NCBI GenBank assembly: GCA_030531915.1
Contig: JAUNMD010000002.1
Span: 1 to 28,177, forward strand
Length of the DNA: 28,177 nucleotides
From: Pseudomonadota bacterium
GTDB lineage: Bacteria; Pseudomonadota; Alphaproteobacteria; Rs-D84
Reading direction: 5' to 3'
The translations under genes and the position numbers were made by a program. The notes beneath the pieces are model-generated. The model did no database searches. It was not told the DNA's origin and was given only the letters and a program-made list of their open reading frames with translations. This document shows positions 8,840-28,176 of this stretch, one piece after another (the first letter of the stretch is position 1; each line of letters begins with the position of its first letter).

Positions 8840-8849
8840 AACGGGCTTT

Positions 8850-10192: not shown

Positions 10193-10214
10193 ATTTTGCA
10201 AGAAAAAGATTTCT

Positions 10215-10242: not shown

Positions 10243-10267
10243 CTGATAAATGGTCGTGTCGCAAAAA

Positions 10268-10330: not shown

Positions 10331-10361
10331 CAGAATTTCATCACAACGAAGGAGTTATTTG

Positions 10362-11465: not shown

Positions 11466-11493
11466 ACATAAAAACAACAAAACATATTGGACT

Positions 11494-11520
11494 AAATCCC
11501 GCGTAATGCGGGATTTTTGT
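11494..11520 (+). terminator. Intrinsic terminator
   Basis: AAATCCCGC-GTAAT-GCGGGATTT then TTGT. Confidence 0.75.
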
Positions 11521-11576
11521 TTTGTACTCTTGGGGAATTTTATGATATAATATGCGCAAAAGGAAATGGATTTTAC

Positions 11577-12656
11577 ATGAAAAAATCTGCTATTTTTGCC
11601 GTTTTAACGGGTGTTTTGGCGGGCATGTCAAATGACGCGCATGCCGCGTATCCTGTGTATCAGGCGGCGTATCCAACAACATATCAGGCGACCACCGCCC
11701 AGGGCCAGGTTATCGCATTGCCAAACCAAACGTCGGTCACAACCAGTACCAGTTTACCGGCCAATACCCGTGTCACGGGTGCGTTACCACGCGTTGGGTC
11801 ATCGGCAACGAATGCAGGACGCCAGTATTACCAGCCGGCGGACTATGACCGTTTGGCGGACAGTGGCCTGTACATCGGTGTTTCTGCGGGGTATTCTGCA
11901 TCAATCACGGGCAGTATGTCCGCCGATTATGCCGGCGAAGATAAATCGTATGTTGTCCCCGGCGCATTCAAAGATGCAAACTTTTCATCTGATACCGTGA
12001 TTCCATTACAGGTATCGGTTGGTGCGGCAATCAATAACGACGTGCGTATTGATTTCTCGTTCTTGCGTTATTCGGGGCTCGGGTACCCAGACACGGTTGA
12101 ATCCGCCGACGGTAATGGTGGCTATATCACGGGCAAGGTCAGTGGTGGTGCAATCACCGCAAACACGACAATGCTGAACGTGTATTATAATATCGATTCT
12201 TATACCGGCTATCTGGCGGGTGGCGCGTTGCGTCCGTATATCGGGGCTGGTGTTGGTATTTCGCTGAATACAATCGCCGACTATGTCGTGTACGATGGCA
12301 CGTTCTATGACGTGATGGATCCATCGGCGGCTGGTGCGGGTGACCTGACGGGTATTTCGGACGTCTATGCATACCACAACGGTGGCACAACAGAACAGTT
12401 GGCTTTTTCGGTCGAGGGTGGTTTGACAACCGAATTGGACGGCGGTATTAAATTGGATTTCTTTGTTCGCTATGCCAATTTGGGCAAGGTTAAAACATCG
12501 GGCAGTATCGTTGTTTCTCAAACTGAATGGTTGGGCGACGGTGCGGGTGGCGAATACCAAGCACCATATGACAGCGTATTCCACTATACCAACTGGTACG
12601 AAAGTGGCCGCCTGGGCATGGTTGATTTAGGTGTCCGCGCACGCCTGCAATTTTAG
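11577..12656 (+). CDS. Outer-membrane beta-barrel protein (OmpA-TM/opacity-like, probably 8-stranded)
   Basis: Start re-called at 11577. Signal peptide, GLYIGVSAG, RIDFSF, MLNVYYNID, RPYIGAGVG, terminal GVRARLQF. Confidence 0.75.
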   Translation: MKKSAIFAVLTGVLAGMSNDAHAAYPVYQAAYPTTYQATTAQGQVIALPNQTSVTTSTSLPANTRVTGALPRVGSSATNAGRQYYQPADYDRLADSGLYIGVSAGYSASITGSMSADYAGEDKSYVVPGAFKDANFSSDTVIPLQVSVGAAINNDVRIDFSFLRYSGLGYPDTVESADGNGGYITGKVSGGAITANTTMLNVYYNIDSYTGYLAGGALRPYIGAGVGISLNTIADYVVYDGTFYDVMDPSAAGAGDLTGISDVYAYHNGGTTEQLAFSVEGGLTTELDGGIKLDFFVRYANLGKVKTSGSIVVSQTEWLGDGAGGEYQAPYDSVFHYTNWYESGRLGMVDLGVRARLQF

Positions 12657-12691
12657 TTTTTTATAACAGGCCAGAGTAGGGGGGAGAGAGA

Positions 12692-14458
12692 ATGAAGTTT
12701 AACTATTATCTATTATCTATGCTCTATGCTCTATGCTCTGCGTCGGCAGACGCCGCAGTGCGAGTTGGCAACGCATCGCGCAGTTATGCGGCCGGCTATC
12801 AACAGGTAAATGCCCAACGCGAACAGATTGCGGCGGCCGCTGCGGCCGCCGCCACACCAACTGCCACGACCCAGTCGGCGGACACGGAAACCAACCTGCC
12901 GGTGCGGGTGGCAAACCGTGAATTGGCGCAAAAGTTGTCGCGTGGCGAAACGGATTCGCGTGTCAGTATCGAAACACTGGATTCTTGCGCAATGGTATAC
13001 CCAAATGGTGAATTTGCGTGGGATACGCCAACGGTTGGCAATGGTGCGGGTGGCGCATCAACGTGTGTCGCGGTTGTCGAATTGCGTGGCTATCAAATGG
13101 GACTGGACGGTTCCGACGCCGTTTTGGCGCGCGCGAATTTGGCGGCGGGCGACGCGGTCAAATGTAATATCTCTGACTTTCCTGAATTTTCATACACCAC
13201 CGATGCGGCCCAGGTTACGTTCCCTGCGGACAATGAACCGACCCGTGCGGACGTGGTTCAGGTATTGAATGCGGAACAGAAACAGAACGCCGGCCTGCGT
13301 ATTGCGGCGGGCACGGTGATTGGCGGTCTGGCGGGTAATGCCGCCGGCAAAAACGAAATCGGCAGTGACAGCATCTTGGGCGGTGGCAAACATAAAACCA
13401 CCGGCACAATTATCGGTGCAATCAGTGGCGCGGCCCTGATGGCGGGCAATGCCTATTCGGGCAAGGTTGCGGGTGACACAATCCTGTCAACCGGCGTCAA
13501 CGCCGCCGCGGGCAGTATGATTGGCAACATCGCCGCCAGTGGCGATTCAGTCCTGCGTATCGAGGATTGCAAAATCCCCAGCGTGACCGTGGCCAAAGAA
13601 AAAACGACCACCAACGCAAATGCCGATAACAAGGCGACCACCGACGCAACCGCGAACAATAACGCCAATGCTGATGATAAAACCGCCGAACCACAGAATA
13701 AAAATTCCAAGTGCCTGTGGGGTGTTATCAGAAAGGGTAACACACTGGGGGACAAACATGCCTATTACAACACTGGCGACGAAACAACATTGGTGTGTGA
13801 ATCAGACGATACTGGTTGTAAACAAGAAACCCTGTTGAATATTAAACTAGATGCATACCCGAACAAAGACATTGATGCCGCGGCCAAGGAAGGGTTCGAA
13901 AAAGTCAAAGCTGATTCCGCAAAACAGTTTTATTTGACTGAAAAAAATGAAATGAAAAATAGTGTAAATCCTGACAACAGTGCAATTTATGCCAAGATTT
14001 CCAGTGCCACCATTGCCACCGGCACACAGATTCCTGCGATGATTGCCGACGTCAATGACAAGGCGTTTGGTTACAAGCGTTCTGATTGGGCCAAATTGAA
14101 ATCGGATTTGTCGGGACATACAATTTTGGGCCGCACGTCCAGCGGTACTGGCTATGCCTTGGACGGTGAATACAGTATCACGGACTTTTACCCAATGATG
14201 GTTGATGCGTCCGACGGCGGTATTATTGACTTTGGTAACAAGGCCAGATTAAAAGGCACATTGATTGGTGCGGGTGCTGGTGGCGCATTGGGTGCATATG
14301 CTGGATACCAAGGGGCACAATCCGATGTCGAAAATCGCTGGGTTACGGCCGTGCGCGAATACAAGGATTCGTTGCAGAAAATATACTGTGCCACCGGAAA
14401 ACGATTCTTGGGCTATTACAACGACGAAATCGTAATCCCCACAATGATAAACCGATAA
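12692..14458 (+). CDS. Secreted/surface protein with glycine-zipper segments and several cysteines
   Basis: Signal peptide ending ASADA; GxxxG helices (AGTVIGGLAG, GTIIGAISG, GAGAGGALG); low-complexity N/A/D/T linker. Confidence 0.7.
   Translation: MKFNYYLLSMLYALCSASADAAVRVGNASRSYAAGYQQVNAQREQIAAAAAAAATPTATTQSADTETNLPVRVANRELAQKLSRGETDSRVSIETLDSCAMVYPNGEFAWDTPTVGNGAGGASTCVAVVELRGYQMGLDGSDAVLARANLAAGDAVKCNISDFPEFSYTTDAAQVTFPADNEPTRADVVQVLNAEQKQNAGLRIAAGTVIGGLAGNAAGKNEIGSDSILGGGKHKTTGTIIGAISGAALMAGNAYSGKVAGDTILSTGVNAAAGSMIGNIAASGDSVLRIEDCKIPSVTVAKEKTTTNANADNKATTDATANNNANADDKTAEPQNKNSKCLWGVIRKGNTLGDKHAYYNTGDETTLVCESDDTGCKQETLLNIKLDAYPNKDIDAAAKEGFEKVKADSAKQFYLTEKNEMKNSVNPDNSAIYAKISSATIATGTQIPAMIADVNDKAFGYKRSDWAKLKSDLSGHTILGRTSSGTGYALDGEYSITDFYPMMVDASDGGIIDFGNKARLKGTLIGAGAGGALGAYAGYQGAQSDVENRWVTAVREYKDSLQKIYCATGKRFLGYYNDEIVIPTMINR
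12703..12737 (+). repeat. Heptamer tandem repeat (CTATTAT)2(CTATGCT)3 in the signal-peptide coding region
   Basis: Read directly from 12703-12737. Confidence 0.9.
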
Positions 14459-14461
14459 AAC

Positions 14462-14489
14462 AAAAACACCCGCCCACGGGTGTTTTTTT
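14462..14489. terminator. Bidirectional intrinsic terminator
   Basis: AAAAACACCCG-CCCA-CGGGTGTTTTT between convergent genes. Confidence 0.8.
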
Positions 14490-14501
14490 GATGGTTTATG
14501 A

Positions 14502-14963
14502 CTATTGACACTCAAATATATTATAACGATATATTGTGGTGGTGCTTGCACCAAAACCGGAGAGTGTCGTAATTGATGTTTTTCCTGCGCTTGCGGATGT
14601 GTCTAACACGCCACCAGCGTTCTGAAATTTTACGGGCATGCTGATGTCTGAACCTGTGATCACATTGCCTCCCATTTCAAAAACAGTTTTGAATATTTGT
14701 GACATGTCAGAACTGGCTATATAACCCAGCAGGGTGCACTCGCCGCCTTTGGGTAATCCAGATGCGTAAATATCAATGTATGTATATTTGTATTCTGGGG
14801 CCGCTTCAAATAAAGAGTGTCCCAAGGTATCTGCTCGCAGTTGGCCTTCATAAAAGCCACCTTCGCCCGTGATATATTTTGTGCCGTCATATGGGTAAAA
14901 TGTCATTGCGGGGGAACACGCCGCCAACAACAGCGCGAAAATCCCGAACTGTATTGCTTTCAT
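14502..14963 (-). CDS. Putative lipoprotein
   Basis: MKAIQFGIFALLLAAC lipobox (LAAC); AAGGAG SD. Confidence 0.75.
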   Translation of the reverse strand: MKAIQFGIFALLLAACSPAMTFYPYDGTKYITGEGGFYEGQLRADTLGHSLFEAAPEYKYTYIDIYASGLPKGGECTLLGYIASSDMSQIFKTVFEMGGNVITGSDISMPVKFQNAGGVLDTSASAGKTSITTLSGFGASTTTIYRYNIFECQ

Positions 14964-14987
14964 AAATGTCTCCTTGATATATTTGTC

Positions 14988-15016
14988 AGTATAAGATATT
15001 GTCTGGCCAAGGGCAA
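14988..15016 (-). promoter_or_regulatory. Promoter of the lipoprotein gene
   Basis: Minus strand TTGCCC - 17 bp - TATACT. Confidence 0.55.
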
Positions 15017-15099
15017 TAAAAAAATACCGTTTTTGTATATTTTTTATTTTTTGGACTTACATGAATATTACTTCTGTTGCCTTGTTATGGTGCGCTGTG

Positions 15100-15193
15100 T
15101 TCTAGCGTGGGTTGATTTTTGTTGTAAAACACAACCTGTGCTAGAAAATAATAGAAAGTTGCACAAAATTCAACCTATGATTGAATTTTGTGT
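15100..15193. repeat. Two long inverted repeats (hairpins) in AT-rich intergenic DNA
   Basis: TTCTAGCGTGGGTTG (15100-15114) pairs with CAACCTGTGCTAGAA (15132-15146) using G-U pairs. GCACAAAATTCAA-N7-TTGAATTTTGTGT at 15161-15193. Confidence 0.75.
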
Positions 15194-15645
15194 TGGTTAA
15201 ATGACGCTTTTTTATAGTTGTGATTGTTGTGTGTACTATTTGTTTGTGCTATTTTATTTGCTTGTCTTATAAATCTCTGGGTAAATTCTAGTATTGTCTG
15301 ATTTCTTTATAAAAAACGCATTATGTAACCGGTGGTTGAATATTTACATAAATTCGCGTATCGCGCGAATTTTGTCTGACGTTTAGGACTGCTTGCAAAA
15401 AATAAATTGAATTTTTATCTTTGTGCAACCTGTGGTTGAATTATGGCCTGTAATACTCTGTGTTGACACAAAAAGCGCGTGATACGCGACAATATGTCCA
15501 GTTATGTTGCACATAAAAGCAATCTATCATAAAAAATATTGGGAAAAATTTCCTAAAATAGAGTAATTACAATAAGTTATTGCTTTTGCTCCTAAGGTGT
15601 GCTATTTAATTTTTTATCAAAATGGATAAATTACAGGAGAAAAAT

Positions 15646-16551
15646 ATGTCATTGCCAAATTATCAAGAATTTATGCGACCGTTATTGCAAGCGTACGCGG
15701 AAACAACAGAACCGTGTAAAATTGCGAAAATGGAACAAGTTGTGGCAAACAAAATGCACCTAACCAGTGAACAACAAAGTGAAATGATTAGGAGCAAGCG
15801 GAACACAGTTGTTTATTCACGTCTTCACTGGGCCAGTTATTATATGTATATTGCTGGATTGCTGCGTAAACCGCAACCTGGGTATTATGAAATCACTCCG
15901 GCTGGTATCAGCGCATTGAAATCAGGGGCGCAAATAAATGATGCTTACTTGTCCCAATTTCCGGATTTTGTCGCTTTTATGAAACGTTCCAATATGAAAA
16001 TCAAGAACACACAGGGCGGGGTAGAAACGGAAACTTGTTCGGCCAGTCAAGATCCAGAGGAAAGTATAGATTCGGCTATTGGCGAAATAAATGCGGCACT
16101 GGAAGATGAAATTTTAACGTCAGTGAAAAACATTCAACCACAACGTTTTGAGCGTGTAGTAGTTGACTTGATGGAGGCCATGGATTATGGCACGGGAAAA
16201 CTGACGCAATATACCGCAGATGGTGGCATAGATGGCATAATCTACGAAGATGAATTGGGTTTGTCTAAAATATATTTGCAGGCAAAGCGTTATTCGGATA
16301 GCAAAATCAATGAAAAAGAAATGCAAAATTTTATTGGCGCATTGGCATCAAATGGTGTGTCCAAAGGTGTGTTTATGACAACATCGTACTTTTCTGACAA
16401 GGCGCGTTCACGTGCCGACAAGGCCCAGAATATGATAATTCGCCTGATTGATGGCGCGGAATTGGCCAAGTTGATGCTGAAACATAATTTAGGCGCTCGC
16501 GCCAAGAAAAATTATGACATCAAAGAATTTGATGAAACATATTTCCAGTAA
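15646..16551 (+). CDS. mrr: Mrr family type IV restriction endonuclease
   Basis: Start re-called at 15646 (AGGAG). Mrr N-domain (LPNYQEFMRPLL, SRLHWA..Y...AGLL) and catalytic DGGIDGII...YLQAKRY, GVFMTTSYF, LIDGAELAKLM. Confidence 0.92.
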   Translation: MSLPNYQEFMRPLLQAYAETTEPCKIAKMEQVVANKMHLTSEQQSEMIRSKRNTVVYSRLHWASYYMYIAGLLRKPQPGYYEITPAGISALKSGAQINDAYLSQFPDFVAFMKRSNMKIKNTQGGVETETCSASQDPEESIDSAIGEINAALEDEILTSVKNIQPQRFERVVVDLMEAMDYGTGKLTQYTADGGIDGIIYEDELGLSKIYLQAKRYSDSKINEKEMQNFIGALASNGVSKGVFMTTSYFSDKARSRADKAQNMIIRLIDGAELAKLMLKHNLGARAKKNYDIKEFDETYFQ

Positions 16552-16623
16552 AACTTTGGTGCTAGTAAATAGGCCGATGAAGCAAAGAATAAAACTCAAG
16601 AATGTGTAAGAAAGGTGCTAGCC

Positions 16624-18510
16624 GTGTACATATCAAAAGTCAATATTAGAAATTTCAGATCACTAAAAAATTTTTCTATAACTCTTGAGAAAGGGTTGTC
16701 GGTTATTGTTGGACGTAACAATACCGGTAAGACATCTTTTTTGATAGCATTAAGCAGATTTATCAACGATGGCAAAATCAATTTTTATGATTTGAATACA
16801 GAGTTTAGCAAATTTCTCTGTGACTTACTCACCACAGGTAATGTCATGGAAGAGAATGATTTTAATGAAAAGTATAGTGGGGATAAAGAGCTGGGAGTTT
16901 TCTTGTCTTTTGTTATTACATATGATGACGATGATGATTTGAGTAATTTGTCTAATTTTATGATTGACCTAGATGAAAATGTTAAAACCGTATCATTTAA
17001 GATGAAGTTCGTCTTAACGTACGATAACTACAAAAAAATTACCCAAAAACTAGATGACAAAGAACCTGAGGCAAAGGTAAGTTATATAAAAAAACATATA
17101 AACGACATTTTAGTTTGGAATGCGTATTCTTATTTTCAAAATGGTGATAAAGAATGCAAGCACTGTTTTGACAAGAGAGACCAATCCTTAGGGAAACTTA
17201 TAGCCATAGAGACAATACGTGCACCAAGGGATTTTGTGAAAAATAATTCAAAAACATTATCGGAACTATCTAACGAATTTTTTCAATGCAAAAAAATCCA
17301 GAAGGAAAAAGTTATTGAAAATTTTGAGGCGTCTCTGGTTGATATGGATAAGCGTCTGAAAGACGAATATGTAAAGATTTTTGACGGTGTTTTTAAGAAA
17401 ATACGAGAATACATAGATGACGAGCATATAAAGCCACAAATTGTTTCAGAACTATCGGCAGAAAACCTGTTGAGACAAAATGTTATTGTAAAATATCAAG
17501 ATGATTTGCCGGAATATAATAATGGCTTGGGGTATTTGAATTTAATAGCCATATTATTTGATATTCAAATTTTTGCTGAAAAACAAAATGATGGCAAACG
17601 GCCAGATATTTCATTATTGTGCATAGAAGAACCAGAGGCGCACACGCACCCACAATTACAATATATTTTTATTAAACAAATAAAAAAATTGATACGAGAT
17701 TGTAGTTTTCAAAGTATTATTTCTTCACATTCAACACATGTTGTGTCCCAGTCAAATTTTGAAGATATAAGGTATTTTTATATAGGCGATGATGCTGGCG
17801 TGCACTCTAAAAGTTTAACAGATTTGCATGGACTCTTGGATGATGATGTATACATCTTTTTCAAAAAATATCTCACTGTAAATTTGGCAGAATTATTTTT
17901 TGCTGACAAAGTAATTTTTATTGAAGGGAACACAGAACGTATTTTGCTGCCGATATTTATTGAAAAGCTTAGACAGCAGGATGAATATAAAAATATTCGT
18001 AGTAAAAACGTTAGCATATTTACTGTTGGTGGGGCTTATGCATATAAATTCAGACCTTTAATTGATTTTTTGAACACAAAATGCCTTATCATAACGGATG
18101 TAGATTACAAAAAAAACAATAATAAGAACCACGGAACAACTAATGCAACCATTAGAAAATTAATACCCAAGCACTCTTCGACGCTTGCAGATTTAATTGG
18201 TGCTGCTAACGAGGAAGTAGAAAAAAATAAATTGTATCTTGCCTTTCAAAGGGATGGAACGCGATCTTTCGAAGATGCTTTTTTTGAAGCCAATAAGTCA
18301 TTTATTAGAGGCAATGTAAACCGCTTTTCGTCGTTAAAAAATAAATCTAAAATCGCAATTTATGAAGATAAAGATGACTTTGCGGAACGGTTTGTGAAAA
18401 GTAAGACGGGATTTGCCATGGATGTTTTAATATTATCTCAGGACAATGATTACAAAGATTGGAAAACGCCAACCTATATAGAAGAGGGCTTGAAATGGCT
18501 GATGAAATAA
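16624..18510 (+). CDS. gajA: OLD-family ABC-ATPase/TOPRIM nuclease, Gabija GajA-like
   Basis: Likely GTG start at 16624. Walker A GRNNTGKT, IEEPEAHTHPQ, SSHS, TOPRIM FFADKVIFIEG...E and ITDVD, terminal PTYIEEGLKWL. Overlaps a UvrD gene. Confidence 0.8.
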   Translation: MYISKVNIRNFRSLKNFSITLEKGLSVIVGRNNTGKTSFLIALSRFINDGKINFYDLNTEFSKFLCDLLTTGNVMEENDFNEKYSGDKELGVFLSFVITYDDDDDLSNLSNFMIDLDENVKTVSFKMKFVLTYDNYKKITQKLDDKEPEAKVSYIKKHINDILVWNAYSYFQNGDKECKHCFDKRDQSLGKLIAIETIRAPRDFVKNNSKTLSELSNEFFQCKKIQKEKVIENFEASLVDMDKRLKDEYVKIFDGVFKKIREYIDDEHIKPQIVSELSAENLLRQNVIVKYQDDLPEYNNGLGYLNLIAILFDIQIFAEKQNDGKRPDISLLCIEEPEAHTHPQLQYIFIKQIKKLIRDCSFQSIISSHSTHVVSQSNFEDIRYFYIGDDAGVHSKSLTDLHGLLDDDVYIFFKKYLTVNLAELFFADKVIFIEGNTERILLPIFIEKLRQQDEYKNIRSKNVSIFTVGGAYAYKFRPLIDFLNTKCLIITDVDYKKNNNKNHGTTNATIRKLIPKHSSTLADLIGAANEEVEKNKLYLAFQRDGTRSFEDAFFEANKSFIRGNVNRFSSLKNKSKIAIYEDKDDFAERFVKSKTGFAMDVLILSQDNDYKDWKTPTYIEEGLKWLMK

Positions 18511-20090
18511 TCGAAAAAATACAAAATGTATTTATGGCCGATAAAAGTTTTGTTCTTGTTGGTGGGGCCGGCAGCGGGAAGACGCATTCGCTCAACAAAC
18601 TGGTAAACCAGATATATTCCAATCAAGCATGTGCCAAAGTTGCGTGTATAACTTATACAGATGTTGCGGCCGAAGAGATAAAAAAAAGATGTTTGAACAC
18701 AGAAAGAACTAATGTCTTGCAAGTGTCTACAATCCATAGTTTCTTGTGGCAGAATATAAAAAATTTTCAACCAGGACTAAAGCGTGTTTTAATTGATTTA
18801 CTTATAAATGGGCACATAAGAAAAGATGATGATATTGAGCTGGATGAGTTAACTCATTTATTAAATGACAAGGACGTAGATTATAAAAATTATAGAAAGA
18901 TATCAGATGGGGTAATATCTCATGATGATTTACTAAAAATATTTGCAAAAATGCTTGAATCATATCGGTTATTATCACGCATATTTGCAGATAGATGTGA
19001 TTACATATTAGTCGATGAATATCAAGATACATCGCCAGATGTAATAAATGGGTTTATAGAATTGATCAAGAAAAAGTGTAAAACAAAATTTGGTTTCTTT
19101 GGTGATACTATGCAGGCCATTTATTCCAATGGAATCGGGGATTTGAATAGATATATCGCCGATGGTACATTGGAGAAAATAGAAAAACAGGATAATTATC
19201 GCTGTTCAATAGCGGCAATTGAGTTGTGCAATAAGATTAGAAATGACGGTTTAATACAGTGTGCTGCCCATCTAGACGATAAAGGTCATGTGGACAATAA
19301 ACCAGGGCGGGCCATATTTGTTTATAGTAATAGTGGTTTGGATGATTTTAGAAAAACAGATGTGTATAATGAAATCTTTGAAAACAAAAGTCCAGATAAG
19401 GAGATGTATTTAACAAATCGACTGGTGGCCAAAAGCGCAAAATTTGGGGAACTATTAGCCGCCTATACCTCCAGAGAAACATATGGTCAAAGTGGCAAGG
19501 AACGACTTATAGGAACAAACAAAGACAAACTTGCAGCTCATTTATCACATATGTCCAAGTTGGTTTACCTGTATAACCATCGGGTGTTTGATGAATTTAT
19601 TCAGGCGGTGTCTATCAAGGTAGAGCGTCATAGTGACAAAAGAAAATTAAAAGGTAAAATGGAGACATTTTTAGAGAAGAATATGTCGGTTGAAACCGCA
19701 ATAAATTCCATGAATGAACTTGGTTTGCTGCATGTGAGTGATGAGGTACAAGAGTTCCCCATTTTGTATAACAAAGTTAAAAATATTGCATTCAGCGAGG
19801 CGTTAGCGCTCTATGAGTATGAGAATAAGCATACACCGTTTTCTACGCAGCATGGCGTAAAGGGTGATGAGTTTAATAATGTTTTGGTTGTACTAGATAA
19901 TGGTCAATGGAATACATATAACTTTGATGAATTATTTTCTGACAATCCGCCGGATAATGTTTTGAAATTATTTTATGTCTGTGTATCAAGAACAGTAAAT
20001 AATGTTGCTGTTTTTATGAAAGAGCCATCTGAGTCTATAATCAATAAAGCAAAACAATGGTTTGGAAATGATAATGTAATTTCTGTTTAG
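18495..20090 (+). CDS. gajB: Short UvrD-like SF1 helicase, Gabija GajB-like
   Basis: Start re-called at 18495. GGAGSGKT, ITYTDVAAEE, STIHSF, VDEYQD, FGDTMQAIY, NYRCS, TQHGVKGDEF, YVCVSR. Confidence 0.8.
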   Translation: MADEIIEKIQNVFMADKSFVLVGGAGSGKTHSLNKLVNQIYSNQACAKVACITYTDVAAEEIKKRCLNTERTNVLQVSTIHSFLWQNIKNFQPGLKRVLIDLLINGHIRKDDDIELDELTHLLNDKDVDYKNYRKISDGVISHDDLLKIFAKMLESYRLLSRIFADRCDYILVDEYQDTSPDVINGFIELIKKKCKTKFGFFGDTMQAIYSNGIGDLNRYIADGTLEKIEKQDNYRCSIAAIELCNKIRNDGLIQCAAHLDDKGHVDNKPGRAIFVYSNSGLDDFRKTDVYNEIFENKSPDKEMYLTNRLVAKSAKFGELLAAYTSRETYGQSGKERLIGTNKDKLAAHLSHMSKLVYLYNHRVFDEFIQAVSIKVERHSDKRKLKGKMETFLEKNMSVETAINSMNELGLLHVSDEVQEFPILYNKVKNIAFSEALALYEYENKHTPFSTQHGVKGDEFNNVLVVLDNGQWNTYNFDELFSDNPPDNVLKLFYVCVSRTVNNVAVFMKEPSESIINKAKQWFGNDNVISV

Positions 20091-20207
20091 TTAAAATTGG
20101 CGGACTCATATTTTAGAGAGTGCTCTAAAAACGGTTTGGTATAAAAATAACAGAATTTAGTTATTATGTTCAACCACGGGTTGAATGGTGTGGCGGATTT
20201 TTAGTGT

Positions 20208-20996
20208 TTATACAACTATATTCTCAAACCGACCTACAATTTCAAGTAGCGTGTTCGGTACATATTTTCGGGCGGTTGCCTTTATGTCGGCTGGCACGCC
20301 ATAGTACGCACCGGCAACAGCACCCGTAATAGCGGCGATTGTGTCGCTGTCACCGCCGATTGAAATTGCATTGCGTATCGCATCTTCAAAATCTGTGGAT
20401 TCTATAAAGCACTGCAATGCTTGTGGAACTGTGCCTTGGCACGAAGAGTCCCAACAGTAACTTTTTTGCAATTCCGAAACCGATAAACATGCCCCATAGT
20501 AGTTTTTGATTATGTGACGGCCTATCTCGGCTTTGTCGTGGCCGGTGCGTGCCAGAAATACAGCAACGGCGGTCGCCTCGGCCCCCTTGATGGCCTCAAT
20601 GTGGTCATGGCTGACCGATGTCACCATGTATGACAGACGTTTGACCTCTGATAAACTGCGACCAACCCAGCCAGCCGCCGACACACGCATTGCTGCACCG
20701 TTGCCCCAACTGTCATACGGTTCATTGTCATAGCCGTCCAGCCATCGCGCAAATCTGAATCCATAGCTTTTGTCTGGAAACTGCCGACCAATCGCGCGCA
20801 TAGACCGCCGTGCCAAGTCCGACAGGTCGCCACCATCATGCCGCCATTTTAACAGTGCATCCGCCACCGCGATGGTCATACAACTGTCATCTGTGATAAA
20901 TCCACATGGTGAAAATAATGGAAAATCCTTGGTCTTGATATTATCAAATTCATAAATAGACCCGACAATGTCACCAACTATTGCACCCCACAGCAT
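20208..20996 (-). CDS. ADP-ribosylglycohydrolase (DraG/ARH family)
   Basis: GAIVGDIVGS, ITDDSCMT (metal-binding TDD), GNGAAMRVS, GGDSDTIAAITGAVAGAYYG. Confidence 0.92.
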   Translation of the reverse strand: MLWGAIVGDIVGSIYEFDNIKTKDFPLFSPCGFITDDSCMTIAVADALLKWRHDGGDLSDLARRSMRAIGRQFPDKSYGFRFARWLDGYDNEPYDSWGNGAAMRVSAAGWVGRSLSEVKRLSYMVTSVSHDHIEAIKGAEATAVAVFLARTGHDKAEIGRHIIKNYYGACLSVSELQKSYCWDSSCQGTVPQALQCFIESTDFEDAIRNAISIGGDSDTIAAITGAVAGAYYGVPADIKATARKYVPNTLLEIVGRFENIVV

Positions 20997-21013
20997 ATTG
21001 CACCCCCCCCTTT

Positions 21014-21535
21014 TTATAATTTGCTTAAAAAATTTTCTAACTCTTTAATCTTTTGTTTTTTCCAAGCACGATTGCTTTTTTGAAACAGGCCGTAAGTACG
21101 CAACTCTGTGACCTTGCGCAACCATGGGGCAGGGTAATAGCCGAACACCGGCACATTCCGTGCCATATATCGCCGCAACAGGGCGACATTTTCATCACGT
21201 GCATCACGCGCGCCACGGGGCCACATTGCCTCTGGCGGAATATCGCGCGATGATGCCGTATGATATGGGTAATATTCCAAGAACAAAACCTCTGATTGCT
21301 CTATGCCACGTTCACGGAACGCCGCACAAAAATCGTCCCACCAATCGTTGTATTCCTGCAAACTGTCCAAATGCATGCCTGTTGGGGCATAACGCCCGTC
21401 TGCCCGCATTGCGTATTCGGGCAAGCGTTTTGGCCATTGCGGGTTTCCGCCTGGGTTCCATAACAATACGACAAGGCGTGGATTTTCATCGTTTCCCAGA
21501 CGTACCACCGGCAAATCGTATAAATCTATACTCAT
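21014..21535 (-). CDS. Hypothetical protein with uracil-DNA-glycosylase-superfamily-like motifs
   Basis: LP...GN...PRLVVLLWNPGG resembles the UDG-fold 'NPG' strand, followed by a W-rich helix and VLFLEYYPYHT. Fold assignment is inference. Confidence 0.5.
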   Translation of the reverse strand: MSIDLYDLPVVRLGNDENPRLVVLLWNPGGNPQWPKRLPEYAMRADGRYAPTGMHLDSLQEYNDWWDDFCAAFRERGIEQSEVLFLEYYPYHTASSRDIPPEAMWPRGARDARDENVALLRRYMARNVPVFGYYPAPWLRKVTELRTYGLFQKSNRAWKKQKIKELENFLSKL

Positions 21536-21645
21536 ATTGCATTTCCCCCCACAAGCAGACCAAAAATTTGATGCGAAATATTTATATGAAAATTTTGCAA
21601 GAAGCAGACAATAAAATCAACAAAAAACACCTGCGCGAGAGTAAT

Positions 21646-21672
21646 AAAAAACACCCCATACAGGGTGTTTTT
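21646..21672. terminator. Intrinsic terminator downstream of the Fic gene
   Basis: AAAAACACCC-loop-GGGTGTTTTT; same stem as the 14462 terminator. Confidence 0.7.
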
Positions 21673-21945
21673 CATCTCTGGCGGTGTGGCAAGATTCTAC
21701 GGCGAACGCCATACAACAAAATACAGGGATTATCAGGGAATTTTTGTAATTTCCTCCCCGCCAACCGCCAATTATTCAATCATAAGTTGTATTATGTCGC
21801 CAAATTCCGCCATTTTTCGCAAAATACGACAATATACATAACAGGGAATTATTTTCGCAAAACAGGGATTTTACATCGCACTATCAGGCAATATCACAAC
21901 CAGAAATAAGTGACTCAAAAATACAAAAAACGACAGAGAATTATA

Positions 21946-22947
21946 TTACAAATTCGGATTTAATTTGTACTTGCGACCCTTGGTGCGACCGGTTGCAATC
22001 AGTACATTATTTGCCACCAATGCTGCCAATAATTTCTTGGTCATTTCCGGTGATTTACCGGTCAACAACTGGGCACGATAGTTGTCTATTTCGCCATTAT
22101 TTTGTATAAATCCGATAATATTGGTCAAGAAATCCCGTTGAGTCTTGGTCAATAATTCGGTAATTTTTTCGGGAATTATTTCGGTAATATTTGATAATTC
22201 ATTTATGGCACGCAAGATAGCATACAGTATAAATTCTATGAATTCTGTTGAATCAGCGGTCTTTTCTGCACGCCCCAAAACAGCATAATATTCCGCCTGA
22301 TTTTCATATACTATGGTTTCAACCGGAATCCATGCAAACACTGGTTGCCATGTGGACAGTACCAATGTCTGCCACAAACGCCCCATACGGCCATTACCAT
22401 CTGCAAATGGGTGGATAAATTCAATTTCAAAATGCATAACAGCAGATTTAATCAGCGGATGTTCTTTGGTTGATTTTGCCCATTTGAATAAATCGGTCAT
22501 TAACGATAACAGATATTCTGGTTTTGCACCGATATGTACCACTTTTTTACCAGAAAATACGCCAACATTACCACTGCGGAACTTGCCAGCTTCATCAACC
22601 AACTCTGCTGTCATCATTTTATGTGCATGCAAAAAGTCAGGAACTTTATACGGATTTAATGTCAAAGCGCGTTCATATGCATCATAAGCATTACGAACTT
22701 CCTTGATTTCACGTGGATTACCAACAATACGACGACCATTGATAACATCTGTAATTTGTTCCAACGATAATGAATTTCCTTCAATGGCTGTGGAAGATTG
22801 AATAGAACGTAGGCGATTTACCTTGCGCAAATGCAGATTGCGTTCATATTCCTTTTTACCCTGAATTTGCCCAATTTTTTCAGCTATTTCCGCAACAAGA
22901 TTGGTAATGTTTGTTGTAATAGTAAATTTCGGGGTATTTGCAGTCAT
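21946..22947 (-). CDS. fic: Fic family protein with N-terminal inhibitory motif and C-terminal HTH-like region
   Basis: Start re-called at 22947 (AAGAGG SD). HPFADGNGRMGR catalytic motif; SSTAIEGN matches the (S/T)xxxE(G/N) auto-inhibition motif. Confidence 0.9.
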   Translation of the reverse strand: MTANTPKFTITTNITNLVAEIAEKIGQIQGKKEYERNLHLRKVNRLRSIQSSTAIEGNSLSLEQITDVINGRRIVGNPREIKEVRNAYDAYERALTLNPYKVPDFLHAHKMMTAELVDEAGKFRSGNVGVFSGKKVVHIGAKPEYLLSLMTDLFKWAKSTKEHPLIKSAVMHFEIEFIHPFADGNGRMGRLWQTLVLSTWQPVFAWIPVETIVYENQAEYYAVLGRAEKTADSTEFIEFILYAILRAINELSNITEIIPEKITELLTKTQRDFLTNIIGFIQNNGEIDNYRAQLLTGKSPEMTKKLLAALVANNVLIATGRTKGRKYKLNPNL

Positions 22948-22959
22948 ATAAACCTCTTT

Positions 22960-23000
22960 TAATTCGGTAATATTATACAAACAAAATACCGAATTATCAA
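22960..23000 (-). promoter_or_regulatory. fic promoter overlapped by an inverted-repeat operator
   Basis: Minus strand TTGATA - 17 bp - TATAAT (22995-23000; 22972-22977). TAATTCGGTA (22960-22969) and TACCGAATTA (22987-22996) form 10-bp arms. Confidence 0.7.
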
Positions 23001-23455
23001 GTTAAAACGATTGATGACCATATATAGGGATACCCAACTCAAAAAACGCCCAAAATAACAACTTTGTTAAACACACTTTACAAAAGTGTTGTTTTTAACA
23101 GTTTTGTAAAATGAGATACAAACATAACATTGCGGAGATTAGTTTGAATTTATACCCAGCAAAGTTACACAATTTTTGCATACACCCCAAGACGCAAAAA
23201 CTAACAATTCAACCACAGGTTGTATCGCGCCAAAAAACTCATCACTTCCAACAAAATACGATGGCTATATGCGCACCCTAAAGGCATTACGCCGGTCGCA
23301 ACCAGTTCTGCAAACAGTTGACGTACACGTTGCAACTTATCGCTAATTATATCGCTAGTTTTTATATTTGAATTAGCAACAAATATACAACCTATGGTTG
23401 TGCATCACACCAAAAACAGGCACGTTTACAGAAAAATGATTTTTGACACCACGCC

Positions 23456-23483
23456 TTGACAATCACACTAAAAAAACTATTTT
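23456..23483 (+). promoter_or_regulatory. Promoter of the HNH-like gene, probably leaderless
   Basis: TTGACA - 16 bp - TATTTT ending 6 nt before ATG 23490; no SD. Confidence 0.45.
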
Positions 23484-23489
23484 TACCGT

Positions 23490-24236
23490 ATGGTAGTTGG
23501 AATTTGTAAATTTTGTGGACAAGAAAAAGAACTTATAAAATCGCATATCATTCCCAAGTCTTTCTATCGTTTAAAAGAACGTGGCAGATTTGCTGCAATA
23601 ACGCCTTCTGATAGGCGCGTTGACATCGTACATCACCAAAATGGGTTTAAAGAGTATTTGATGTGTTCAAATTGTGATGGTTCGTTAGGCAACTTAGACG
23701 CGTATGCAGAAAGAATACTTTTTCAAGAAATATGCAACTATCCATTTCAAACGGTTGATAATATTAAAACATATTTGCTAAAAAATGGTGAATTTGATTA
23801 TAATAAATTGAGAAAATTTTTTATATCGTTAGCATGGCGTGCTTCAATTTCTTCAGAATTTAATACTTTTTCTTTGGGTAAATACGAAGATGTAGCATTA
23901 AAAATCTTGAAAGGGGAACTTTCAGACAATGCTGATTTATTTGTACCAATCGTTATGAGAAAACAAACACAAACACCGATAGACAACATAAGCACTTGTT
24001 TTAGAGATCGGGTTCTTGGGAAATACTCTTGTTTAATCAAATTCCCAGACTACGAAATAAAAGTAATCACAAATACAAAAGATAACAACTCTCCGGAAAT
24101 TATGCGGATATATAAATCTTGTTTAACCCCAGAAGAGTTCCTTGTTATGGAAACAGACTGCGCTACAGACTATGATGTGAGATTACTAGAAGCAATTATT
24201 CGTTCGCATCGCCCTAATAATCACATCATCTCGTAA
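23490..24236 (+). CDS. HNH-like zinc-binding hypothetical protein
   Basis: CKFCG...KSHIIPKSF...CSNCD pattern. Confidence 0.6.
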   Translation: MVVGICKFCGQEKELIKSHIIPKSFYRLKERGRFAAITPSDRRVDIVHHQNGFKEYLMCSNCDGSLGNLDAYAERILFQEICNYPFQTVDNIKTYLLKNGEFDYNKLRKFFISLAWRASISSEFNTFSLGKYEDVALKILKGELSDNADLFVPIVMRKQTQTPIDNISTCFRDRVLGKYSCLIKFPDYEIKVITNTKDNNSPEIMRIYKSCLTPEEFLVMETDCATDYDVRLLEAIIRSHRPNNHIIS

Positions 24237-24331
24237 TCTTTGTGGCGGAGGACGGTGTCAAACAGGCCGATGTCTTCGCCATCGGACCATCATTAAACAC
24301 ATCTTGGCTCACTAGCGGTTCATAAAATAAA

Positions 24332-27300
24332 TCATCCAAACACCTTATCCAACTCTGTTTCCAATGTCCCTTCTTGGGCGGCAGGCAAGGCATCATACTG
24401 TCTGAAATTATGCTTTTTGATTGTTATGTCACTGTCAAATCCCAAAATATATGACGTTGCAATCTTATATATAATCTCTGTCGGTGCCAATCCATATACC
24501 TGTTTTTCAAATATATGTTTCAGTCTTTCCTTGTTATCCGGATACTTCTTACGCATTTCCTTGCTTTGATATAATCTTTTTACAATTTCCGTTATATATA
24601 ACCCCGATTTCATGTATAAATCTATGAACGTTTTTTCAGGATCATCAAAGCAACCAGGATTTTCTTGCTCTAAATAATCAACCATTTCTTTTACTACTTT
24701 CTTGGGCGTAAATATCTGGTTTGTTTTCTGTGGTGGGATATAGTCAAAAATGTCTTCCTTGCTAGATTCATCAAAATAGTTCGCCAGTTTAGCTTTCAGA
24801 TTCAAAAACTCTTTCACAGAATCATCAAATACAACAGGATCAAACAAATGCCCCTCAAAATGTTTGGTTTCACCGGTCTCTGAATCTGTATAATCGCCAC
24901 CATCACGCAAGAACCTGAATTGATCTAACGTAATACTGGTAACATCTTGGAATACTGCGTCTGGAATAATCTGATCAAAGTTTTCCAACGTTGTATCCTC
25001 ATCCCCATAGGCCATCAGGAAAGACGGTATGGTTCTCGAAAATCCACGTAAATGGGCACGAACAGATTCTTCTATACCTTCTTTCTCTTTCTTACGTTTT
25101 TCTGTTTCAACTGTTTTTACTATGGTTTCACCGGCCTTCTTGACAACAGTATCCACACTACCTTTTACTGTATCTACAAATGTTTTATGAATCTTGTTTT
25201 TCTGAGAGTCATATTTTGCATTTATCTTGGCTATTTCAGTTTTTGATGTGGCTTCTTCTATTTCTTTTTTACGTTCTAATTCATTTTTATTATTTTCTAT
25301 TTGATATGAAGAATAAGCCTTTACCAAAGCAGCATTAGCATCTGAGGCGATAGCACGAGTCACCGCCTGTTGGGCACTTTTACTCATTTCACTACCATAC
25401 GATTCCTTTGCCGTTTCTACTAAAGATGTTGTTACAGTGCCAAATGCGGCTTTATACTTTGCAAATTCATCTGGGTCCCCGGCTTTTTGTTGTGTTATTT
25501 CGTCAACAGTATCTAACAAACCTTGGCTAAGGCCATATATTTTATCGCCAAAGACTTCGTGTGCTTGGCCAATAATTATATCTTGTGAAACTTCAACTTC
25601 GCCTTCATCGTTAATTGACAGCGAATCTTTTGTTTCTTGGTTGACTAGTACCTGTTCTTTTGTTGGTTCCAGTTGCTTTATAACATCTATAATTTCTGTT
25701 GGTGCATTGAATATATTACTGATGTTTTGGAATAAGAAATTGCTCATAAATCCACGTCTGACAACTTCTGCTGAATGAATTTTACGTGGAATTGATAATA
25801 CTTTCTCGGCATCCAGTGTTATCATCTCACCTTCTTCGTCTTCACCATATACAGGGAAGAAGTTCAACAGCTCATAGACATGTTTTTTTCTTATTGCAAT
25901 ATCACCTTTGCCAGAGGAAGTATCGGGGCTCAGGTTATTAGCAAATTGTTCCACTATGGTCAAAGTTCTAGCAGGATCAAAATCAAACACATAAGCATTT
26001 TCTTTTCTATAGAATTTCTTGCCGTCTTTGAACAAACATGGATTTTGTGCTCTGAACGCCGCCTGCATATAAAGAGCAGGACTTTGAACATTACTAAGCA
26101 TCAAAACGGCCGTCCATTCTGGTATTGTTATTCCTGTTGTCAGTTGCCCCACAGATAAAGTTATGGTTTTGTCGTGTTCTGCTATGGCCTTTTTCACCTT
26201 GTCAAACGACTTCTGGTTTTCCTCTTCGTCATCTATTTTGCCGTTCCCAGCAGCTAAAACAACTTCGTAATTGCCATTGCCGAATACGGGGTGGCCTTTC
26301 AATTTCTTTGCCAATGCTTTGGCACTGTCAACACGATTTAATAACCAGAAAGTATGCTTCAATTCATTACGCAATTCTGGGGTAGAAAACGGAAACTTTG
26401 TCTTGTTTACCAGTGCGTCCAAAAATTTATCCACGTCTTCTTCGTATTTGAAAGTTCCATCTGATTTGGTGATAAAAAACTCATTCAAATCAAATGCATA
26501 CTCTTCTGTTTCGCCATCTGAATTGAAATCTGCCCCAGCCTTCAGTTTATCCCTTATGATTTCTGACATTTGATACGTGTAAAGATTCAACTGGGGCAGA
26601 CTTTCGTATGGGTTTTCTATTTCCAGATTTTCTTGTTTTTCATACCATTCACGTTTTTTTCGTTGTTCATCAGCATAAGTCCAGTTGAATATAGCATGCT
26701 CATCAAACTTGCTATTCGCTAATGCTTTAAACGGTGTTCCAGACAGGTGTAATGTATATTTTCTTCTTATCTGATCAAACGCCATATCTGTTTTGTATGT
26801 ATCAATTCCTTCGTGTGCTTCATCAATAACCAATAAATCCCATTCCAAATCAGCAACTTCTTTCAATTTATCATATCGGCCACCAAAAAACACTGAACCT
26901 TTCATATCCTGCAACGAAACAAATTCTATGCAACCTTTATGATTCGGATCTGATAAATGTTTTGTGTATTGTTCCCTGGTTATAACGTATTTTTTACCTT
27001 TTAGTGTATCAACTTGGCTAACAAAATAATACCCAGATTCCGTCCCCATAAACTTTACATAATCATCATACCAAGAATTGGCAATCGCTGGTCTGTTCGT
27101 TACAATCAATACCTTTTTCGCCCCCAGTTGTTTGCACAGATCATACGTAGATAATGTCTTTCCAAATCTGGGCTTTGCATTCCATAAAAATTCGGGTTCA
27201 TCGTCTTCATTTGCCTTGAAGTATGCTTTTGTATTATCAACGGCTGTATTTTGCTCTTCGCGCAGTTTATACTCAACAGATCCCAAAGATTCCAATATGC

Positions 27301-27682
27301 CACGATTTGATTTAAATTCTATAAAATGATCATGAGATGGCTTTGGTAATATGTGGAACCATTCTGTCTTTTCTGTGTGTTCTTGACCATCTGAATCTAT
27401 GTAAGTATTTGTTCCTCGTTCAATATCATGTTTTTGTAAATAGGCATGAAAATCAGTATCATGAAAAGTATCGCCCGAACCATCGTCATAAATAGCCGTT
27501 CCCGTCCATTCTATTTTGTATTTTATATCCGCTGTTTGTGTCTGTTGGCGAATACGCGCCTCTACATCCTGCTCTGTAAACCCAATCTTTGTCCACCCAT
27601 GATGTCGTGCAATTTCTGGGGTAGTATAAGCATAACACATTGGCACAACTTTTTTACTGGTATTGATGTGTATCTTTGCCAT
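24332..27682 (-). CDS. RM-associated GIY-YIG-like nuclease / SF2 helicase with C-terminal methyltransferase-like remnant
   Basis: N-terminal YAY...KIGFT...RIRQQ...TEWF; Walker A AKPRFGKT, DEAHEG, LSGTPF, YMQAAFRAQNP; C-terminal YIPPQKTNQIFTPKKVV...DLYMKSG without an NPPY-type motif. Confidence 0.8.
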   Translation of the reverse strand: MAKIHINTSKKVVPMCYAYTTPEIARHHGWTKIGFTEQDVEARIRQQTQTADIKYKIEWTGTAIYDDGSGDTFHDTDFHAYLQKHDIERGTNTYIDSDGQEHTEKTEWFHILPKPSHDHFIEFKSNRGILESLGSVEYKLREEQNTAVDNTKAYFKANEDDEPEFLWNAKPRFGKTLSTYDLCKQLGAKKVLIVTNRPAIANSWYDDYVKFMGTESGYYFVSQVDTLKGKKYVITREQYTKHLSDPNHKGCIEFVSLQDMKGSVFFGGRYDKLKEVADLEWDLLVIDEAHEGIDTYKTDMAFDQIRRKYTLHLSGTPFKALANSKFDEHAIFNWTYADEQRKKREWYEKQENLEIENPYESLPQLNLYTYQMSEIIRDKLKAGADFNSDGETEEYAFDLNEFFITKSDGTFKYEEDVDKFLDALVNKTKFPFSTPELRNELKHTFWLLNRVDSAKALAKKLKGHPVFGNGNYEVVLAAGNGKIDDEEENQKSFDKVKKAIAEHDKTITLSVGQLTTGITIPEWTAVLMLSNVQSPALYMQAAFRAQNPCLFKDGKKFYRKENAYVFDFDPARTLTIVEQFANNLSPDTSSGKGDIAIRKKHVYELLNFFPVYGEDEEGEMITLDAEKVLSIPRKIHSAEVVRRGFMSNFLFQNISNIFNAPTEIIDVIKQLEPTKEQVLVNQETKDSLSINDEGEVEVSQDIIIGQAHEVFGDKIYGLSQGLLDTVDEITQQKAGDPDEFAKYKAAFGTVTTSLVETAKESYGSEMSKSAQQAVTRAIASDANAALVKAYSSYQIENNKNELERKKEIEEATSKTEIAKINAKYDSQKNKIHKTFVDTVKGSVDTVVKKAGETIVKTVETEKRKKEKEGIEESVRAHLRGFSRTIPSFLMAYGDEDTTLENFDQIIPDAVFQDVTSITLDQFRFLRDGGDYTDSETGETKHFEGHLFDPVVFDDSVKEFLNLKAKLANYFDESSKEDIFDYIPPQKTNQIFTPKKVVKEMVDYLEQENPGCFDDPEKTFIDLYMKSGLYITEIVKRLYQSKEMRKKYPDNKERLKHIFEKQVYGLAPTEIIYKIATSYILGFDSDITIKKHNFRQYDALPAAQEGTLETELDKVFG

Positions 27683-28176
27683 TACGCCATCTCCATATAA
27701 TTTTTGATATTTCTTTCGGTTTTTGTCTGAAAATTATCAAACACGAATTTCTGAATATTTTGAGGCACTTTATATTTTTTCATCAATTCTTTATCTATTT
27801 CTTCTATAGATAAATTCCACCACAATTCGGTATAATCTTGGATTGGTATTGAACCCCAAGACGTTGTGCTATGTTGAGAAAACTTATTTAAATATAATAA
27901 GGCCCTTAAAAACTTTGTCATAAGATATTTTGAATGTTTTTCCGCTGTAATTGCATCGTCAAAGCATCCAGATTCAAGATATGACTCTGTACAAATTTCA
28001 TTTGGCGCTGCTATTATTATGTCAGAAAACGCTCCTCCTAAACCAGTCTTCTCTGACATGTTTCCCCAAGCATAAGGAACAAATACCTTATATTTATGCA
28101 TAGCATCGGATGTTTTTGGTAAAGTGTATCCGCTAGGAGCAAATTTTACTTTTCCGCTTTTGCAATATATTTTTAT
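27682..28176 (-). CDS. C-terminal (specificity-like) part of a probable Eco57I-type RM methyltransferase, truncated by window edge
   Basis: Frame stays open from 28101 to the window end (IKIYCKSGKVKFAPSGYTLPKTSDAMHKYK...). Tail KFLRALL...W..IP.QDYT..W...IDKELMKKY is typical of such proteins. TAATG coupling to the helicase gene. Confidence 0.55.
   Translation of the reverse strand: MKIYCKSGKVKFAPSGYTLPKTSDAMHKYKVFVPYAWGNMSEKTGLGGAFSDIIIAAPNEICTESYLESGCFDDAITAEKHSKYLMTKFLRALLYLNKFSQHSTTSWGSIPIQDYTELWWNLSIEEIDKELMKKYKVPQNIQKFVFDNFQTKTERNIKNYMEMA

Follow-up and report, generated by a model that had tools for sequence, protein, structure and literature searches.

A palindromic repeat of defence islands in a small-genome alphaproteobacterium, probably the core of an apparently genus-restricted mosaic repeat family

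A palindrome recurring in a defence island

The window analysed here is the whole stretch of the first 28,177 nucleotides of contig JAUNMD010000002.1 from a Pseudomonadota bacterium (Alphaproteobacteria; Rs-D84; assembly GCA_030531915.1). From ~15 kb onward its G+C content falls from 45-52% to 32-37%, and here begins a defence island with genes for an Mrr-type restriction enzyme, a Gabija pair, an ADP-ribosylglycohydrolase, a Fic protein and restriction-modification enzymes, the intergenic gaps of which carry the palindrome CAACC-N3-GGTTG. A first-pass annotation of this DNA had interpreted the palindrome either as an island-wide operator or as the recombination site of a cassette-capture mechanism. 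The follow-up analysis indicates that it is probably the conserved core of a lineage-specific, non-coding mosaic repeat family that works in a manner resembling the NIME repeats of Neisseria. The following copies were found in the window.

15171..15183, no strand assigned: palindrome with one mismatch (CAACCTATGATTG); matrix score 28.6; orthologous copies in three relatives
15326..15338, no strand assigned: palindrome with one mismatch (TAACCGGTGGTTG); below the matrix threshold
15426..15438, plus strand: perfect palindrome CAACCTGTGGTTG, followed by AATT; found by the perfect-core scan and as a matrix hit
20171..20183, no strand assigned: perfect palindrome where gajB and the ADP-ribosylglycohydrolase gene converge, between their 3' ends
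21777..21789, no strand assigned: degenerate palindrome with two mismatches (CAATCATAAGTTG), within module ig3; matrix score 22.4
23210..23222, minus strand: perfect palindrome, reading CAACCTGTGGTTGAATTG on the minus strand; matrix score 29.0
23388..23400, no strand assigned: perfect palindrome CAACCTATGGTTG; found by the perfect-core scan and as a matrix hit

Pattern scans confirmed the coordinates of all perfect, near-perfect and degenerate copies reported earlier, as well as the separated half-sites GGTTG (15110-15114) and CAACC (15132-15136). The four perfect cores in the window (15426, 20171, 23210 and 23388) compare with 0.06 expected from dinucleotide-preserving shuffles of the window (n = 100), none of which reached four. 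Cores with at most one mismatch number seven against 0.9 expected. They add the sites at 15171, 15326 and 22335, the last of which falls within the Fic gene, scores below the matrix threshold and probably arose by chance. The listed sites are all intergenic relative to long open reading frames (ORFs) with family matches. The TT..AA flanks that had been reported are genuine, the extended consensus being (A/T)T(T/A)CAACC-N3-GGTTG(A/T)AT. The copy at 15171..15183 forms the centre of a near-perfect palindrome of 31 bp (15162-15192). Orthologues of the 15326 copy in two relatives read CAATC..GATTG, and 21-22-mers identical to the 23210 site are present in the related genomes G080 and G158.

The genome that contains the window (G000; 958 kb in 139 contigs, 48.5% G+C, 86% complete) has seven perfect cores, of which four lie inside this single 8-kb stretch (15171-23400). 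A weight matrix of 21 nt, built from 135 distinct sites of related genomes with the window excluded and applied at a cut-off that retains 90% of the training sites, gave eight hits genome-wide and none in the reversed genome. Six of these are in the window (15171, 15426, 20171, 21777, 23210 and 23388), one (C129:1887) lies in a second defence island just 3' of a GmrSD-like gene, and one (C116:1104) lies upstream of two small unknown ORFs. Because six of the eight hits fall in the window and seven in the two defence islands, the motif is not equally common in coding DNA and outside the island. It was also confirmed that the motif is absent from the first 15 kb, as positions 1-15170 contain neither matrix hits nor cores with at most one mismatch. 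The recurrent palindrome is real.

The second defence island (G000:C129, L305; 1-17561) is AT-rich and encodes a GmrSD-like enzyme, an EcoRI-like methylase, a resolvase, RhuM, two integrases and a type III-like restriction-modification pair. Its palindrome-like site at C129:1887 sits within a longer A/T-flanked hairpin. A perfect core on contig C137 looks like a chance occurrence; this contig of 2.4 kb, with a G+C content of 59% and a run of N, may be foreign to the organism.

Conserved modules and alternative cassettes

Four related islands of the same genus (G188, G158, G080 and G093) were compared with the window, and the intergenic gaps of all four carry the palindrome. The comparison divides the island into non-coding modules and gene cassettes, listed here in order.

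14502-14963, minus strand: lipoprotein-like ORF, left neighbour of module ig1
14964..15646, no strand assigned: module ig1, between the lipoprotein-like ORF and the Mrr gene, with a long hairpin, three palindrome copies and a second small palindrome family
15100..15146, no strand assigned: long hairpin TTCTAGC..GGTTG..CAACC..GCTAGAA, conserved in homologous copies
15622..16551, plus strand: Mrr-type type IV restriction enzyme cassette (Pfam Mrr_N and Mrr_cat; PADLOC mREase_IV, 1.2e-64)
16615..20090, plus strand: Gabija pair, gajA at 16615-18510 and gajB at 18459-20090 (PADLOC GajA 3.1e-153, GajB 2.6e-147)
20208..21535, minus strand: ADP-ribosylglycohydrolase gene at 20208-20996 (Pfam ADP_ribosyl_GH, 1.2e-37) and ORF of 173 aa without known family at 21014-21535
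21536-21945: module ig3, holding the degenerate palindrome at 21777; recurs in four related loci
21946..22980, minus strand: SoFic-like Fic cassette (family searches)
22981..23489, no strand assigned: module ig4, between Fic and the ORF of 248 aa
Right of module ig4 (which ends at 23489): ORF of 248 aa of unknown family
24332..28176, minus strand: pieces of large helicase/methylase restriction-modification genes (ResIII; type IIG/ISP-like), running off the contig end

Module ig1, a gap of ~680 bp, is conserved in four same-genus genomes at 70-91% identity despite differing downstream genes. The half-sites at 15110-15114 and 15132-15136 form the inner stem of its long hairpin (15100-15146), for which the consensus fold of five homologues has 24 pairs, two of them changed on both sides, with a weak covariation term. 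The second palindrome family in this gap consists of an inverted pair 92 nt apart, at 15352-15368 (TTCGCGTATCGCGCGAA) and 15476-15488 (CGCGTGATACGCG), and is kept across the four-genome alignment. In G158 (L026, 14433-15327) a CRISPR array beside cas9-cas1-cas2 directly adjoins the conserved non-coding block, the one found ahead of Mrr in the window; its 36-nt repeats end in TGATATAAT, which is extended -10-like.

The regions ~21640-21890 and 23040-23390 are found again in several related loci. Within ig4, the segment 23301-23377 is what remains of the 3' portion of a longer Fic-like gene and matches within a Fic-family ORF of 476 aa (L027); this origin explains why its 41-bp piece 23337-23377 has matches of ~88% in ~25 genomes of the genus. 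Two hairpins similar to each other, at 14462-14488 and 21646-21672, are G+C-rich, bordered by A/T runs on either side, and resemble bidirectional terminators; the latter belongs to a module that recurs at four related loci and in which a duplication of G093 joins.

Islands at the same locus differ in gene content between relatives. The same two modules, ig3 and ig4, flank Fic in the window and an AAA_14/DUF4143 ATPase in G188. The pair of ADP-ribosylglycohydrolase gene and 173-aa ORF recurs as a unit in G188 and G093, and the complete hydrolase cassette (20169-21631) is found as a second copy in G188 and twice in G093. The homology of this cassette starts at 20169, exactly at the palindrome, and the left flanks of its four contexts are unrelated. 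At 15442 homology to the G093 island stops, and at 23388 that to the G188 island, both at a palindrome. The ends of homology blocks were counted over six island loci, an end within 6 bp of a palindrome being taken as near. In all DNA 15 of 129 ends are near a palindrome against 3.2 expected, and in non-coding DNA only 15 of 108 against 6.3 expected (~2.4-fold; nominal p ~0.002), a modest excess.

The hydrolase pair resembles a pair of the toxin-antidote type. In G093 (L028, 4606-9338) it is tandemly duplicated with a period of 2367 bp, and both genes are broken into shorter ORFs. The cumulative GC skew of the window peaks near 20 kb, at the flip in gene orientation. A replication terminus or dif site at the island was considered and rejected, the skew of G188 staying positive for ~60 kb past the homologous island; as there is no turn at the homologous place in G188, the turn at ~20 kb is regarded as a local effect of the island.

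Anatomy of the repeat

Comparison of 163 distinct sites showed that the 5+5 core is nearly invariant and far better conserved than the centre, and that the first base outside the core is T or A on each side. The unit as a whole is a polar repeat of 19-25 nt, AAATA-CAACC-TRT-GGTTG-AATTT. Its half-site forms GGTTGAAT and GGTTGTAT combine near-randomly (67 : 75 : 7), from which it follows that there is no selection for pairing past the 5-bp stem. The polarity of the unit follows from 87 asymmetric sites, in which a T-R-T bias of the centre goes along with the flanks. Centre triplets among the 163 sites include ACA/TGT (55), ATA (29) and ACG (13), and most one-mismatch variants carry a C-to-T change in the left arm. 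Across all 163 sites, the flanks and the centre vary together with orientation. Judged from these sequences, the polar flanks and preferred centre point to common descent of the copies rather than to binding sites that evolved independently.

Arrays in relatives and distribution of the family

CAACCNNNGGTTGAAT was matched in 55 of 257 same-genus genomes. Eight of these 55 have at least five strand matches, and in several of the 55 the matches are tightly clustered. Array loci were examined in six relatives, counting sites with at most one mismatch. The array of G095 contains 44 sites in 5.8 kb, with a single ORF of at least 80 aa, and has two arms of opposite orientation. The arrays of the other relatives hold 28 (G185), 19 (G076), 14 (G262), 11 (G209) and 6 + 14 (G054) sites. 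Copies in the arrays are mostly spaced ~97-115 bp apart, and the segments of 45-125 bp between them form recurring families in mosaic order, with higher-order duplications such as one with a 502-bp period in G262. A second hotspot is constituted by these arrays, which follow downstream of a conserved gene set (TetR-flavodoxin-DUF362). The window itself contains only sparse copies. A relative of the methylase piece at the right end of the window adjoins the 14-copy array of G262. Three arrays have beside them a protein of 391-420 aa that matches no Pfam or NCBIfam family.

In the other genera of the class, 298 genomes were covered: 11 of them contain one or two matches, and in none are the matches clustered. 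A search of the genome collection for paired palindromes 80-105 bp apart gave, among the matches listed, seven multi-copy loci of other taxa that were inspected, and these are unrelated tandem repeats with other flanks. CAACCNNNGGTTGAATT gave only single scattered matches among those listed for viral contigs. A foreign origin of the array segments was rejected, as the 5.9-kb array DNA of G095 has no match in phage or plasmid collections. Among the genomes searched, the repeat family looks restricted to one genus. No description of this repeat was found in the literature, in a search that did not include the name of the organism.

Partner enzymes

The first-pass annotation had suggested a search for a recombinase near other copies. 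Resolvases and integrases occur in every genome searched, in some cases inside islands, and none is consistently found beside the repeats. Some islands and arrays have small serine recombinases or P4-like integrases inside them or at a distance of ~1-13 kb. No recombinase was found in the 28-kb window, where no ORF belongs to an integrase family, nor in 14-16 kb around the G095 and G076 arrays.

Three specific candidates were rejected. The Y1 transposase RAYT (PF01797) has no match in four of five genomes and two matches with internal stops in the fifth, G262. The IS110-type enzyme (PF01548) is found in none of five genomes and in 6 of 14 control genomes. Small GIY-YIG genes, candidates for an Ssn partner, are present in three of five genomes (G000, G095 and G185) and are flanked by a different repeat (GTCATTGCGA... 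type). The only palindrome match near these genes, allowing at most two mismatches with one arm exact, is a one-mismatch core after the G000 gene, and G076 and G262 have arrays but only a GIY-YIG protein of ~500 aa. The G000 gene (C96:13159-13377, L171) is a small single-domain GIY-YIG gene with its own hairpin repeat (GTCATTGCGA... type) on both sides. It fits the published Ssn arrangement of nuclease and repeats, as far as the excerpt of PMC11893778 describes it, and is unrelated to the CAACC-N3-GGTTG palindrome. ComEC and DprA are present in four of four genomes, which is uninformative because most control genomes have them as well.

Comparison with known systems

The closest likeness is to NIME. 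In the excerpted text of PMC1797815, the 20-bp inverted repeat dRS3 (ATTCCC-N8-GGGAAT) flanks RS elements, many families of segments of ~50-150 bp, and the resulting long non-coding arrays stand beside strain-variable genes and were proposed to be a substrate for recombination. The repeat described here resembles that account in being a short inverted repeat with conserved arms, a variable centre and flanking segment families (here 45-125 bp), in clustering into long non-coding arrays (here 11-44 copies in six relatives) and in having neighbours that vary between strains (here alternative cassettes between the same modules). It differs in sequence, AT(T/A)CAACC-N3-GGTTG(A/T)AT versus the dRS3 motif, and in belonging to an alphaproteobacterial lineage with genomes of ~1 Mb instead of to Neisseria. 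NIME repeats number hundreds genome-wide and neighbour surface-antigen genes, whereas copies of the present repeat range from a few to some dozens, placed at one or two loci, beside anti-phage genes. Moreover, the phage recombinase that targets NIME is of the IS110 type, for which PF01548 gave no match in the five genomes searched here.

The likeness to the REP/BIME elements of enterobacteria and pseudomonads is looser. These are extragenic palindromic units, often in alternating orientation, which together with short motifs make up mosaic clusters. Such clusters are mentioned in the excerpt of PMC11893778. Shared with the present repeat is the separation of palindromic units by other short motifs. 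REP/BIME differ in having tens to hundreds of dispersed copies, compared to eight matrix hits per 958 kb, seven of them in two defence islands, and in having a cognate Y1 RAYT, compared to no intact Y1 transposase in five genomes. On grounds of sequence, lineage, copy number and absent partner enzymes, the repeat is taken to be a member of neither NIME nor REP/BIME. The Ssn single-strand nucleases recognise oriented hairpin repeats (NTS/SRM), according to the same excerpt (PMC11893778). The likeness here lies in repeats that are oriented and semi-palindromic, gather near certain genes and would be recognisable by a small dedicated enzyme. By inspection, however, the palindrome lacks the GTC of the degenerate motif given in that excerpt, and the small GIY-YIG genes of the genus are flanked by the other repeat described above.

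The integron site attC has the arm consensus RYYYAAC / GTTRRRY within a site of 57-141 bp with boxes R''-L''...L'-R', present once at the 3' end of each cassette and recognised by IntI. The present repeats are likewise imperfect inverted repeats at cassette boundaries, and by inspection their arms fit this consensus. They differ in having arms 5 bp apart, no inner L boxes, three to five copies per gap and cassettes in both orientations. An attC identity was rejected for the arm spacing and the absent inner boxes, by inspection against the consensus and not with a covariance model. An IHF-site reading was rejected in the same manner, by inspection against a consensus. A CRISPR reading, which would call for direct repeats that are nearly identical, unique spacers and adjacent cas genes, was rejected as well: the repeats show degeneracy and stand in either orientation, the intervening segments recur, and the array DNA is unmatched in phage and plasmid collections. 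Only G158 has cas genes nearby, with their own separate repeat.

Weighing of the explanations

Regulation was one of the two roles proposed by the first-pass annotation. In such a model a dimeric DNA-binding protein encoded elsewhere would co-regulate or silence the island promoters, with the long arrays acting as its sink. It agrees with the much stronger conservation of the 5+5 core than of the centre and with the location of several copies in divergent promoter regions. The near-random combination of half-site forms next to the core means that sequence, not pairing, is kept there, as with protein contact. A repressor of this kind is known in RptR, which is the first gene of its defence island and has TAGCTA repeats overlapping the -10 box of its promoter (excerpt of PMC12255303); the likeness is a short palindromic motif repeated in a defence-island promoter. 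Unlike in the RptR island as described in that excerpt, no regulator was found here, in line with what the first-pass annotation had noted: no ORF of the island belongs to a DNA-binding regulator family, three ORFs having no family at all. The sites are also remote from predicted core promoters, in contrast to the overlap of RptR sites with the -10 box (same excerpt of PMC12255303). The best promoter-like match of Fic (-35 box 23000-22995) is ~210 bp from the nearest palindrome and that of the 248-aa ORF (-35 box 23456-23461) 56 bp, which puts palindromes 56 to ~210 bp away on the upstream side of the best predicted -35 boxes or, at 20171, between convergent 3' ends; promoter-like matches are no commoner than in shuffles. 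Gene-free arrays of up to 44 copies would not be expected, and the polarity of the unit looks like common descent. The operator reading is weak, and a regulatory role is considered quite unlikely; a protein that is titrated or acts from a distance is conceivable, with nothing positive in its favour. A role as RNA hairpin, that is a terminator, transcript stabiliser or processing site, is very unlikely. The C-to-T variants of the left arm would make G-U pairs in one orientation, one site follows ~25 bp after the hydrolase stop codon in three genomes, and the intergenic region folds better than shuffles (z = -6.9, minus strand). Most copies, however, have no T-run after the stem, selection for pairing does not extend past 5 bp, many copies lie upstream of genes or within gene-free arrays, and there is no match to an Rfam family: the window has only a tRNA at gathering score, and 14400-24400 only chance-level matches.

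The remaining explanations concern the repeat as DNA. A dedicated site-specific recombinase or nuclease could cut and join inside the palindrome, acting on the arms AAAT(A/T)CAA and the centre CCNNNGG, which would make arrays and islands an integron-like cassette platform. The polar site with its preferred centre triplets, the joints located exactly at a palindrome and the serine recombinases and P4-like integrases near some islands and arrays would fit. Against it, none of these enzymes is consistently adjacent, neither the window nor the surroundings of the G095 and G076 arrays contain one, the order AAC..GTT with 5 bp between the arms and no inner boxes is unlike attC by inspection, and IS110-type enzymes and intact RAYT were not found in the five genomes, the Ssn-like GIY-YIG gene having a different repeat. 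This explanation is judged as doubtful as the regulatory one. Put more broadly, the palindrome might be the site of an unrecognised recombinase or nuclease, with islands and arrays serving a gut lineage of reduced genome as a platform on which anti-phage genes are exchanged. Such a platform would function like an integron, though with a minimal 5-3-5 site and no IntI, and its gene-free arrays would be landing pads or the scars of repeated exchange; it is a slightly less doubtful, still improbable, proposal. Somewhat better placed, although still unlikely, is the idea that the repeats are selfish or neutral DNA without a role in the island, either units like MITEs (miniature transposable elements with inverted repeats) with GGTTG(A/T)AT ends or products of slippage and unequal crossing-over. 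The units running from palindrome to palindrome have imperfect inverted ends with a 3-bp joint, the arrays contain higher-order duplications (502-bp period in G262), and the family occurs in one genus only among the genomes sampled. No transposase was found as partner, however, and no target-site duplication is demonstrable for the units; solitary full palindromes (20171) lack the second end expected of a unit, and arrays of kilobases persist in genomes of ~1 Mb.

The reading considered probable remains that of a NIME-like mosaic repeat family, the members of which most likely are boundary repeats that help to shuffle defence cassettes, as far as sequence comparison can tell. The inverted repeat AAATA-CAACC-TRT-GGTTG-AATTT would delimit variable segments of 45-125 bp and whole gene cassettes, with copies concentrated at one or two variable loci per genome, the defence islands and the second, array-building hotspot. 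Repeats and shared modules would supply common short sequences to different strains and loci. Cassettes may then be swapped, duplicated or deleted when these sequences recombine, either inside the chromosome or between it and incoming DNA, and the arrays may grow as a by-product. We infer the use of the repeats in recombination; whether this would be driven by homology or by an enzyme, and any selective benefit, are matters of inference too.

Several observations weigh against this proposal. Of the 108 non-coding block ends, 93 are not at palindromes, and the 2.4-fold excess of those that are is inflated by BLAST extension through shared palindromes and derives from block ends that are not independent. 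The 2367-bp tandem duplication of G093 joins inside a shared, terminator-bearing module and not at a palindrome. No recombinase, transposase or nuclease is consistently adjacent to the repeats in the islands and arrays searched. The repeat family could be selfish or neutral, without benefit to the host. The arrays, finally, may be under-assembled in draft genomes, which makes the distribution uncertain. The second proposal of the first-pass annotation, recombination sites of a cassette-capture mechanism, thus holds in part. Palindromes do lie in modules common to islands with different cassettes, the hydrolase cassette starts at one, and cassette boundaries in relatives are enriched at palindromes although most joints are elsewhere. 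A defined mechanism of cassette capture is not established, because of the 93 joints located elsewhere, the G093 duplication that joins in another module and the inconsistent recombinase neighbours.

Meaning for defence islands

The architecture of the NIME type was already known; what would be new is a lineage-specific mosaic repeat linked to defence islands in a genome of ~1 Mb. Little is settled about the way in which defence islands acquire and shed their systems, especially in small genomes with few mobile elements. Here the repeat and its modules frame interchangeable cassettes: Mrr, Gabija, the ADP-ribosylglycohydrolase pair, Fic or a DUF4143 ATPase, and restriction-modification genes. 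Since the repeats break short-read assemblies, the defence islands of this group are probably under-sampled in its draft genomes. If the repeats promote exchange, mosaic scaffolds of the neisserial kind would represent a solution that recurs wherever strongly selected genes have to vary, extended from surface antigens to immunity genes.

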